From the IMG/VR virus record IMGVR_UViG_3300032285_003957, positions 160,001 through 224,000 of that record: a DNA stretch of 64,000 nucleotides, one strand, 5' to 3'. This document shows positions 25,531-45,518 of the stretch, in pieces. Both the position numbers and the translations under genes were made by a program. The first letter of the stretch is position 1; each line of letters begins with the position of its first letter. Below the pieces are notes generated by a model. It saw only the letters and a list, made by a program, of their open reading frames with translations. It did no database searches and had not been told where the DNA came from. Source of the DNA: a virus. Taxonomy: Duplodnaviria > Caudoviricetes.

Positions 25531-26148
25531 ATGAGTATAGATGTAAAATTTAAAAACAAGCCAAAAATTTTAGGATTGGATATTTCCACTAAAACTATTG
25601 GGTGGGCTTTGTTTGATATGACAGGGTCCAAACTATTGGAGCTAACTCACTTTTCTCCAAAAATTAAACCTCAACCTGAAGATAAGATTGAAGAGTTAAT
25701 AAAAAAAGCAGATGCTTTCAAAAAACATTTGGAAGGATATAAGGACATGGGTATTGTTCAAGTCGTTATTGAAGAACCATTATTAAGTTCAAATAATGTT
25801 TACACAATCCAAACGTTACTACGTTACAACACAATGATTTTGAAATGCTGTTATGATACATTAGGTGTAGTTCCAAATTTCATTTCAACATACAACGCAA
25901 GAAAATTTGCGTTTCCAAGTTTAGTTGGACCAAACGATAAAGGACGTAATGTATTGTTTGGTGGTTATCCAAAAGATATAGATAAAAAACAAGTTGTTTG
26001 GGAACACGTTAATGCGGTATGTCCTGATATCGAATGGTTATACGGTAAGACTGGTAATTTGAAAAAAGAAAATTTCGATATGAGTGATGCTGCTACTGCT
26101 GTGATTGGATATGTGAATATGATTAAGTCAGAAAAATCCGGCAACTAA
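25531..26148 (+). CDS. ruvC: RuvC-like Holliday junction resolvase
   Basis: ILGLDISTKTIGWA (RNase H fold, first Asp), VVIEEP, and DMSDAA acidic residues. Confidence 0.8.
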   Translation: MSIDVKFKNKPKILGLDISTKTIGWALFDMTGSKLLELTHFSPKIKPQPEDKIEELIKKADAFKKHLEGYKDMGIVQVVIEEPLLSSNNVYTIQTLLRYNTMILKCCYDTLGVVPNFISTYNARKFAFPSLVGPNDKGRNVLFGGYPKDIDKKQVVWEHVNAVCPDIEWLYGKTGNLKKENFDMSDAATAVIGYVNMIKSEKSGN

Positions 26149-26185
26149 AATTTGTATTTACGCTGAAGTTGATTTATATTTATTA

Positions 26186-26260
26186 AAGGACGGGACGAGG
26201 GTTAAAATCCTCGTTTGGTTGGTAGGGAGTCGAGGTGGTGTTCGACTCCCATTTTTTTTT
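26186..26260 (+). ncRNA. Candidate small structured RNA: two GC-rich hairpins ending in an intrinsic terminator
   Basis: TATTTAT at 26177; hairpin GACGAGGG/TCCTCGTT (26194-26215); perfect hairpin GGGAGTCGA/TCGACTCCC (26225-26250); T9. Confidence 0.5.
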
Positions 26261-26289
26261 ATCATATTTTTTATGTATATTCTATCATT

Positions 26290-27228
26290 ATGGTAGAACA
26301 AGAAACCGATTATTCAGCTGTCGTTGAAATTTTAGAAGACATTTTGGGTGATTATAGAAATCACAACGACTATCGCGGTCAAATATCTTTTGATTGTCCT
26401 ACATGTTCCTATGATATAAAAGGATTGGATGAATTGGATGGTAAAGGTAATCTTGAGGTAAATTATAAGCACAATGTTTACAAATGTTGGGTGTGCGCTG
26501 AAACTCATGATACACATGGTTCTGTTTACAAATTAATAAAAAAATTTGGTAATCCTCGTCAGTTAAAGAAATATTTGTTACTAAGACCTGATGAAGATGA
26601 ATCGGTGCAAAGAGTTTATAAGACTGTTAAATTACCAAAAGAATTTATACCATTCTCATCTGCAAGTGCGGGTTTAAAGATGACACCACAATATAGACAA
26701 GCATACAACTATATTAAAAGTAGAAACATAACTGAATTGATGTGTCAAAAATTCAACATTGGTTTTTGTTACACTGGTTTATATGAAAATAGAATTATAA
26801 TACCATCTTACGATGAAAATGGATTCGTAAATTATTTTGTTGCTCGTTCTTATTTGCAAAAGACGAAAAGAAAATATATGAATCCCGAAGCCCAAAAGGA
26901 AATATTAATATTCAATGAAAAATTAATTAATTGGGAAGAACCAATCTATTTGGTTGAAGGTGCATTTGATAGTATTTTTTTAAATAACGCAATTCCAATG
27001 CTTGGCAAGTATATGAGTGAACACTTATATAATACGCTTTATAATAAGGCGGTTAAAATTATAATAGTATTAGACCCCGACGCATGGGGTGATGCTGAAA
27101 GATTATATCACAAACTTAATTGTGGTAAACTTATGAACAAAATTTGGATTATTAAATTAGAAGGAAACCAAGACATAGCTGATTTACAAGGAAAAATTAA
27201 TGAAAACGATATAAAACAATTAGATTAA
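26290..27228 (+). CDS. DNA primase (Zn finger + TOPRIM)
   Basis: CPTC...CWVC zinc finger; LVEGAFD and LDPD TOPRIM motifs. ATG 26290 is preferred because the listed start runs through the hairpins. Confidence 0.85.
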   Translation: MVEQETDYSAVVEILEDILGDYRNHNDYRGQISFDCPTCSYDIKGLDELDGKGNLEVNYKHNVYKCWVCAETHDTHGSVYKLIKKFGNPRQLKKYLLLRPDEDESVQRVYKTVKLPKEFIPFSSASAGLKMTPQYRQAYNYIKSRNITELMCQKFNIGFCYTGLYENRIIIPSYDENGFVNYFVARSYLQKTKRKYMNPEAQKEILIFNEKLINWEEPIYLVEGAFDSIFLNNAIPMLGKYMSEHLYNTLYNKAVKIIIVLDPDAWGDAERLYHKLNCGKLMNKIWIIKLEGNQDIADLQGKINENDIKQLD

Positions 27229-44993: not shown

Positions 44994-45518
44994 ATGGAAA
45001 CAAACTGGTATGTAGTTAAGGTGATGCCTGGTAAAGAAAGGACTCTTAACGAAGAATTTAATAAGAAAATCTCAATGGGTAAGTTGGATAACATAACAAG
45101 ATTTGTTTGTCCAACCGAAAAGGAGTTTGTGGTTGTAAAAAAGAAAAAGGTATTAAGAGAAAAGGTTCTATATGGTGGATACCTTTATTTTGAAGCACCA
45201 AAATTACTAAGTGATAGCGAATTAAAGGTGATTGCAGCAACCCAAAACATTATGGGTATTATGGGTAATAAAACACCAATGTTATTGAGCAAATCCGACG
45301 TTAGAAAGATTATGGTTGATGATAGATTGGATGAACATATCGAATCTAAAAAACTTTATATGTCTATTGGTGAAAGAGTTACTATTAACGAAGGTGCTTT
45401 TAATTCTTTTGAAGGTATTATTTCTGATATCAAAGGAGAAAAAGTTGATGTGGAAGTTAAGATATTTGGTAGAAATACCGTAGTTTCGTTGACCATGAAC
45501 CAAATCGAAAAATTGTGA
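44994..45518 (+). CDS. nusG: Transcription termination/antitermination factor NusG
   Basis: NWYVVKVMPGKE, LYGGYLY (NGN domain), GERVTINEGAFNSFEGII...VEVKIFGR (KOW domain). ATG 44994 is preferred. Confidence 0.9.
   Translation: METNWYVVKVMPGKERTLNEEFNKKISMGKLDNITRFVCPTEKEFVVVKKKKVLREKVLYGGYLYFEAPKLLSDSELKVIAATQNIMGIMGNKTPMLLSKSDVRKIMVDDRLDEHIESKKLYMSIGERVTINEGAFNSFEGIISDIKGEKVDVEVKIFGRNTVVSLTMNQIEKL

Follow-up and report, generated by a model that had tools for sequence, protein, structure and literature searches.

A predicted clade-specific small RNA with a late-type promoter and its own terminator precedes the primase gene of giant bS21-encoding phages

Few small RNAs are known in phages. 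Among the closest described systems, the OOP RNA of phage lambda (77 nt) is a short, self-contained unit that is transcribed from its own promoter, pO, beside the replication genes and ends in a strong hairpin followed by a U-tract; it is antisense to cII, acts through this overlap, and was once considered a possible replication primer. The put RNAs of phage HK022 are phage-encoded elements of ~65–70 nt that lie immediately downstream of a promoter and fold into two stem-loops joined by a very short linker, with structure conserved more than sequence; they lack a terminator of their own and act on downstream terminators. The leaders of the LoaP (Bacillus), UpxY (Bacteroides), and RfaH/ops systems have a conserved element shortly before an intrinsic terminator, and their genomes also encode a dedicated paralogue of NusG. 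In addition, the UGGN bulge of T-box RNAs and the GGU of P15 in RNase P pair with the 3′ NCCA end of tRNAs. We know of no small RNA described for phages of Bacteroidota, whose hosts, to our knowledge, lack Hfq, ProQ, and Shine-Dalgarno-based initiation.

The locus described here lies in a 64,000-nt window (the whole stretch of DNA that was analyzed), which corresponds to bases 160001–224000 of a 234-kb IMG/VR virus record that is ~70% complete. The phage genome encodes ribosomal protein bS21 and complete relatives reach ~335 kb, so the phage belongs with the freshwater bS21 phages whose predicted hosts are Bacteroidetes/Flavobacteriia (PMC9723584). The closest primase from a cultured phage is that of Flavobacterium phage immuto (35% identity), and a DNA similarity search against GenBank phages returned no match. 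The predicted small RNA (26187–26260, + strand) consists of a body of ~65 nt and a U-tail. It is situated, as the original prediction had placed it, between a gene for a RuvC-like resolvase (25531–26148, +; phrog_159), its usual yet separable upstream neighbor, and a gene for a DnaG/T4-type DNA primase (26290–27228, +; PF08275, phrog_47), its constant downstream neighbor. The GC-rich island that had been noticed in AT-rich DNA is real (~50% GC within a genome of 32–33% GC), and TATTTAT (26177), both hairpins, and the T9 tract all occupy the positions first assigned to them.

In ~8 related contigs, a gene of ~830 nt that resembles UDP-glucose/GDP-mannose dehydrogenases (274 aa; e.g., L057:4128–4952, +) is inserted between ruvC and the RNA. 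Where this gene intervenes, the sequence GGCAACTAA-ATTTTAC from the end of ruvC is retained beside the RNA. Since a gene can separate ruvC from the unit in this way, the unit travels with primase and is not the terminator of ruvC. An open reading frame with a TTG start (26215–27228, +) crosses hairpin 2 in frame with primase. We regard it as an artifact of ORF listing, as it is not conserved as a coding sequence; the element, measured up to the end of the T-run, spans 68–77 nt in relatives, and these lengths vary by non-multiples of three.

The conserved sequence opens with AGGAC at 26187. Hairpin 1 (26189–26220, +) is predicted by RNAfold to form a 13-bp interrupted helix, the core of which comprises 8 bp (26194–26215) capped by a TTAAAA loop. 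At its conserved base, GAC-G-GGAC pairs with GUUU-G/A-GUU, and three invariant G-U pairs flank a 1 × 1 purine–purine mismatch (G-G or G-A); the distal stem differs among relatives, as does the loop (GNRA or UUAAAAU). A hinge, GGTA (GGUA in the RNA; 26221–26224, +), forms the end of a segment conserved as GGUUGG(U)(A) in alignments A1 and A3 and leads directly into hairpin 2 (26225–26250, +), the intrinsic terminator stem, which carries the loop GGTGGTGT and is built from nine Watson–Crick pairs and a closing G-U. Within it, the loop segment GGUGGUGU (26234–26241, +) contains an invariant UGGUG core that we propose as the effector site. A single base, A26251, separates hairpin 2 from the T9 tract of the terminator (26252–26260, +; identity 0.99). 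The minimum free energy (MFE) is −35.2 kcal/mol, compared with −20.0 ± 3.3 kcal/mol for 200 dinucleotide shuffles (z = −4.64), none of which was as stable (0/200).

In related ~335-kb phages that carry bS21, ~150 loci have the unit immediately before primase. When loci were chosen by primase protein similarity alone, the RNA was present in all 21 (21/21; 72–78% identity), and in a larger sample picked by the primase protein only it was present in 79 of 80 (64–81% identity), its position being ~100 nt ahead of the start codon of primase. Scanning IMG/VR with the motif retrieved 70 further true loci, every one directly upstream of primase, and the RNA starts 97–120 nt before the primase ATG in each of these pattern-found loci (70/70). 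It is single-copy per genome, and covariance model R1 scores 89.9 bits at the RNA locus against 13.5 bits at the second-best site in the genome. The element is missing in more distant relatives (primase ≤ 52% identical). Scanning 185,579 reference genomes of bacteria and archaea for the exact motif gave seven matches, none of them genuine; all are chance occurrences in high-GC coding DNA that lack the hairpins and the T-run. In a sister clade without the RNA, another conserved stretch precedes primase, made up of ATAAATATA and then AAAACTTGTGAAGGTTGATT; it forms no hairpin (L196–L213, ~60–110 nt before the primase start; locus position ~2390–2440). Only a single clade of giant Bacteroidota phages with bS21 has this predicted RNA family.

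Covariation in the ruvC–primase spacer of related phages, the analysis for which the original prediction had called, is seen in both stems, including hairpin 1, on which that prediction had staked itself. In the protein-sampled alignment A3 (48 distinct rows), 98.1% of cells are able to pair, and 14 of the 19 pairs show compensatory, double-sided changes (220 cells). The covariation score of A3 is 0.712, whereas shuffling gives 0.192 (0/500 as high) and partners slid out of register reach at most 0.211; RNAalifold detects compensatory changes in 11 of 19 pairs. Hairpin 1 is paired in 98.9% of cells and has changes on both sides in 5 of its 10 pairs. Hairpin 2 is paired in 98.2% of cells with compensatory changes in 8/8 pairs, its sequence drifting as the pairing is retained. 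By segment, identity is highest outside the T-run in the hairpin 2 loop (0.93) and lowest in the two arms that hold it (0.54 and 0.55), with intermediate values for the 5′ segment AGGACGGGAC (0.88), the 3′ base and hinge GUUUGGUUGG(U) (0.87), and the distal part of hairpin 1 (0.72). None of the ~60 distinct variants lacks UGGUG, and the core that stays fixed across them comprises the 5′ sequence (A/U)(G/A)GAC-GGG, the mismatch with its three invariant G-U pairs, GGUUGG, and the UGGUG of the loop. In one locus (L183), hairpin 1 has been lost and hairpin 2 has been kept with the loop UGGUGGUG, in which UGGUG survives. The mean MFE is −29.7 on the + strand vs −17.9 on the − strand; together with the invariant G-U pairs, this difference indicates a functional molecule on the + strand and argues for RNA over DNA hairpins. 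A clade-specific structured RNA is strongly supported by these patterns of conservation.

The promoter box TATATTTAT (26175–26183, +; identity 0.84 across relatives) contains TATTTAT (26177–26183), a genome-wide late motif. TATTTAT has 129 copies in the 234-kb record, shows a 17-fold enrichment over the 60 nt that lead up to ORFs, and precedes ~60 ORFs, late genes among them. The genes behind it include those for terminase, portal, head protease, and many large virion proteins, so the label “late-type” is fair, and the promoter motif claimed at the outset is borne out. The motif lies 0–9 nt before an ATG in 30 cases and typically ends 4–7 nt before it (terminase, portal, and ~30 other genes), so near that many late mRNAs should be leaderless or nearly so; L414:5183–5196 and L414:7019–7032 are examples of TATTTAT(A) this close to an ATG. 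At the RNA, most variants have 3–6 nt between the end of TATTTAT, or of a near variant of it (TATACTTAT, TATATTTAA), and the first conserved base, and because this distance is fixed, the predicted start coincides with the onset of sequence conservation. An upstream TTTG/TTTT element (26151–26154, +) is located 20 nt before the promoter box, with TTT columns at least 98% conserved over 56 distinct spacers, and is possibly a −33-like element of a Bacteroidota-type promoter. At the opposite end, the stem of hairpin 2 measures 9–10 bp with a mean energy of −16.5 kcal/mol, and the T-run is T9 in 41 of 51 distinct variants and never falls below T5, in keeping with the earlier claim of a terminator belonging to the unit itself. 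The accompanying argument that a plain terminator would not suffice also holds, as hairpin 1, which a plain terminator does not need, covaries.

Comparison with known RNA families left the RNA without an assignment. Rfam 15 gave no match at gathering thresholds over the whole window, and in E-value mode the region 26100–26320 returned noise only, such as RUF6-5 at 18 bits (threshold 70) and the tRNA-Sec model at 14.8 bits (threshold 47, E = 2). The Rfam/Infernal check that had been proposed thus yields no known family, and ARAGORN detected no tRNA or tmRNA gene in the window. A tRNA-like reading was rejected, as the loop of hairpin 1 is often a GNRA tetraloop rather than a 7-nt anticodon or T loop, and the D-loop-like AGUUGGUAG and T-loop-like GGGUUAAAAUCC are unconserved among variants. 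Neither a CRISPR-repeat mimic, a K-turn, a YUNR loop, CsrA GGA sites, nor a G-quadruplex appears to fit the conserved positions, and a YUNR-type loop motif is absent from the RNA altogether. The element may already be listed, unnamed, in a 2023 IMG/VR catalog (PMC10690425) of ~8,500 candidate structured RNAs.

The reading that we favor, at a probability of about one half, is that the locus encodes a small RNA of the late class that stands alone and would display an effector loop on its terminator hairpin. A stand-alone RNA was one of several roles raised by the original prediction, and it is the one that fits best, given a promoter at a fixed distance, a conserved 5′ start, a strong terminator, and a covarying hairpin 1. 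On sequence, the unit has its own promoter, its own terminator, covariation, and no coding potential. That the RNA is transcribed discretely and independently, with the 5′ and 3′ ends given here, and that it acts in trans on a target, we infer from this architecture. RNA polymerase would start at or beside the A/G of AGGAC, a few bases past the late-type TATTTAT box, and would stop at the 9–10-bp GC-rich hairpin and U9, yielding a compact RNA of ~65–70 nt. Both ends of this product would be locked in helices, and resistance to nucleases would be expected. Hairpin 1 would serve as a scaffold, and its fixed, G-U-rich base with the purine–purine mismatch would be a likely protein or tertiary contact. 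Hairpin 2 would be at once terminator and pedestal, presenting the invariant loop UGGUG(U) as the effector. The RNA would most likely act in trans, late in infection, with the loop pairing to a CACCA-containing RNA or binding a protein; we know of no RNA chaperone in this system. The strict linkage to primase in ~150 loci fits a role in cis as well.

Any role in cis must be weighed against the start signals of primase itself. A promoter-like box, TTTTTT-ATG-TATATT (26267–26281, +; identity 0.79–0.81), precedes the primase ATG by 8 nt, and relatives have TTTTTT..(G)TATATT or TTTTTT..TTATAyT 7–8 nt before the ATG, including relatives that lack the RNA (G032; L189 and others). Elsewhere, the class TTTTTT-N2-3-GTATATT-N7-9-ATG also stands before some non-late genes (G000:38346–38390, G000:58872–58916), and TATATT within 22 nt of starts was observed 11 times vs 4.3 expected. 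The class may be a non-late type of promoter, and the primase box would be expected to act as one. Because primase keeps a conserved box of its own, also where the RNA is absent, it appears independent of read-through, which favors an RNA in its own right or, at most, a supplementary device in cis. This bears directly on the classical leader attenuator or riboswitch, in which the 1:2, 2:3, and 3:4 pairings would exclude one another, the form in which control of primase had been suggested. The reading is tempting, since in this window CCUCG of the hairpin 1 3′ arm can pair with CGAGG in hairpin 2, yet this 2:3 antiterminator pairing is a chance occurrence: across 48 distinct variants, the most favorable 2:3 structure has a mean energy of −4.1 kcal/mol vs −4.5 for shuffles, and it is lacking from most variants, such as those whose 3′ arm reads UACAAGU. 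C, which could pair with the G-rich arms, is nearly absent from the conserved segments, and there is neither a leader peptide nor a riboswitch match in Rfam. We therefore depart from the original prediction here and judge a classical attenuator extremely unlikely. Unlikely, too, is a cis leader for factor-dependent processive antitermination, in which a NusG-like or other factor would read the hairpin 1 base and hinge; late transcripts would normally stop at hairpin 2, and the factor would permit read-through into primase–exonuclease–Mre11–Rad50. Precedents are the LoaP, UpxY, and RfaH systems and lambda N, which acts at nutR-tR1 before O and P. The phage encodes a NusG-like protein (44994–45518, +; PF02357 1e-10, phrog_6386 3e-23; own TATTTAT box), with an NGN domain and a weak KOW match. 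Its family was found only in the phage clade of the RNA (63 loci, at least 51% identical), with the gene in 11/11 RNA-bearing records vs 0/8 records of the sister clade and together with the RNA in 12 of 16 further records. However, this co-occurrence amounts to one phylogenetic split, and one lineage (G032) has the NusG-like gene and primase with no RNA before primase. Likewise, a conserved hairpin right before an intrinsic terminator, ahead of a replication/recombination operon and constantly linked to primase, is what antitermination would lead one to expect, but primase keeps its own box, a stem of −16.5 kcal/mol and T9 make a very strong stop, and the reading leaves unexplained both why the terminator loop is the most conserved part and why L183 has hairpin 2 only.

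An insulator acting in cis by promoter occlusion, which we rate as quite unlikely, would assign no role to the RNA product. The terminator would halt late transcription arriving from the virion block and ruvC, and polymerases loaded at the late promoter shortly upstream would stall and terminate 6–30 nt before the primase box, shutting an early/middle primase promoter late in infection. The geometry suits this proposal, as the end of T9 is only 6 nt away from the TTTTTT of the box and 15 nt away from its TATATT, the genes upstream of the RNA are late virion genes on the same strand, and no terminator separates ruvC from primase in the sister clade. A plain terminator would be enough for the purpose, though, and the selection on hairpin 1 (compensatory changes in 5/10 pairs, invariant G-U-rich base), the invariant 5′ end, and the invariant loop would all go unexplained. 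The proposal of an origin-associated primer, whereby a G-rich transcript would form an R-loop or pass to the replisome at the AT-rich stretch beside primase, has parallels in T4 oriF/oriG, the T7 primary origin, and ColE1 RNA II. It can draw on the promoter, on the G-rich transcript (G > C throughout) followed by T9 and an AT-rich spacer beside replication genes, and on the presence of one copy per genome. Against it, the promoter is of the late class, and origin firing in T4-type phages is early; selection acts on intramolecular hairpins with G-U pairs and not on RNA–DNA pairing; the terminator releases the RNA; and the window has no skew switch at the site. Although a replication primer or origin RNA was among the roles originally suggested, the late-class promoter, the selection on an RNA-level fold, and the single copy taken together leave it unsupported and very improbable.

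For the stand-alone small RNA, the invariant loop offers a way to look for a partner. UGGUG is complementary to CACCA, and a survey of CACCA near the starts of 172 orthologue pairs from two genomes brought out one conserved intergenic site, the CACCAUAA box. The box belongs to the leader of a 141-aa gene of unassigned function (G000:94904–95329, outside the window), which is divergent from the phage bS21 gene and is its neighbor in both clades; this gene is probably “bS21_CN,” which is said to co-evolve with bS21. The box occupies the 5′ end of the leader, ~8–12 nt after a late-type promoter and ~20 nt before a 3–4-codon mini-ORF that overlaps the main start. Within the leader (L223:1717–1790, equivalent to G000:94856–94929), the mini-ORF stop overlaps the start codon (UAAUG); the sister clade keeps the mini-ORF arrangement but not the box. 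The box is present in 10/10 large RNA-bearing records. Of 65 distinct leaders (orthologue identity 53–81%), 64 have it, amid drifting AT-rich sequence, and it is found in 0/5 orthologues of the sister clade, which lack the RNA too. Some lineages carry variant loops (UGGUGC, UGGUGG) or variant boxes (G-CACCA, C-CACCA, AACCA).

Loop and box can form a duplex of up to 8 bp (−10.7 kcal/mol), which ranks 55th of 272 leaders by energy, and ranking the leaders by duplex energy produced no conserved top target. Prediction of targets for the loop, as originally recommended, gave one conserved CACCA box and no conserved candidate at the top by energy. Sites matching ACACCAC(C) genome-wide are almost all antisense in coding regions, where they correspond to Gly-Gly-Val codons. 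Loop and box are both invariant, so their pairing is inaccessible to covariation, and the co-occurrence of RNA and box represents a single phylogenetic split. By a rough estimate, the chance that CACCA would fall in some conserved intergenic island is ~15%. We treat the box as a weak lead to the target of the RNA. UGGUG also matches the CACCA-3′ end of tRNAs, and tRNA genes of the phage itself encode ...CACCA. In addition, the loop matches the CACCUCC stretch of the 16S tail with one U-U mismatch; for Flavobacterium johnsoniae, the 16S tail is confirmed for the ...ACCUCCUUUCU-3′ part only, and the bases before it are presumed. In Bacteroidia ribosomes, bS21 hides the 3′ tail of 16S rRNA. A more specific and quite unlikely proposal is that the RNA is half of a riboregulatory pair that arose together in this clade, with UGGUG(U) pairing to the CACCAUAA box at the mRNA 5′ end of the gene divergent from bS21 and with the loop nearly complementary to CACCUCC of the 16S tail. 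If true, the RNA would tie the timing of late genes to the take-over by the phage of the anti-Shine-Dalgarno pocket of the ribosome. The pairing of the UGGUG loop with the CACCAUAA box beside phage bS21 is a testable hypothesis.

The predicted RNA is among the better-supported candidates that can be obtained from sequence alone: it combines dozens of compensatory changes, independent of one another, with a defined class of promoter, a defined terminator, and a sharply defined loop. If it proves to be only a local device in cis, its interest would be modest. The analysis nevertheless corrects the attenuator reading, and a covariance model is ready for annotating hundreds of lake-phage contigs. 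Metatranscriptomes from Lake Rotsee exist for related phages (PMC9723584).

Set beside the known systems, the RNA shares single features with each. Like the T-box UGGN bulge and RNase P P15, it carries a motif suited to tRNA ends: tRNAs with C72 and A73 end in CACCA-3′, the exact complement of UGGUG, and the geometry of this pairing matches that of T-box UGGN. This is a resemblance only, as the RNA has no specifier loop, antiterminator, or T-box architecture and its motif sits in a terminator loop. With the LoaP, UpxY, and RfaH/ops leaders, it has in common that a conserved element closely precedes an intrinsic terminator and that the genome also encodes a NusG paralogue. Here, however, the downstream gene is preceded by a promoter-like box, the paralogue occurs without the RNA in one lineage, the terminator loop rather than the upstream hairpin is most conserved, and contact between the NusG-like protein and the RNA is putative. 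The HK022 put RNAs are alike in size, in their two stem-loops with a very short linker, in following a promoter immediately, and in conserving structure over sequence; they differ in acting on terminators downstream, whereas hairpin 2 is itself a terminator with T9, and comparison with put detected no similarity. Ordinary intrinsic terminators of the same genome resemble hairpin 2 in having a GC-rich stem and then a T-run, but the other 25 strong terminators have short, non-conserved loops of 3–5 nt and lack both a conserved partner hairpin upstream and a dedicated promoter of their own. The lambda OOP RNA, to which it has no sequence or structural similarity, is alike as a short, self-contained phage unit with its own promoter beside replication genes and a strong hairpin and U-tract at its end. 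OOP acts by overlapping the gene to which it is antisense, whereas the RNA described here is co-oriented with its neighbors, overlaps no gene, and appears to have its effector in a hairpin loop.
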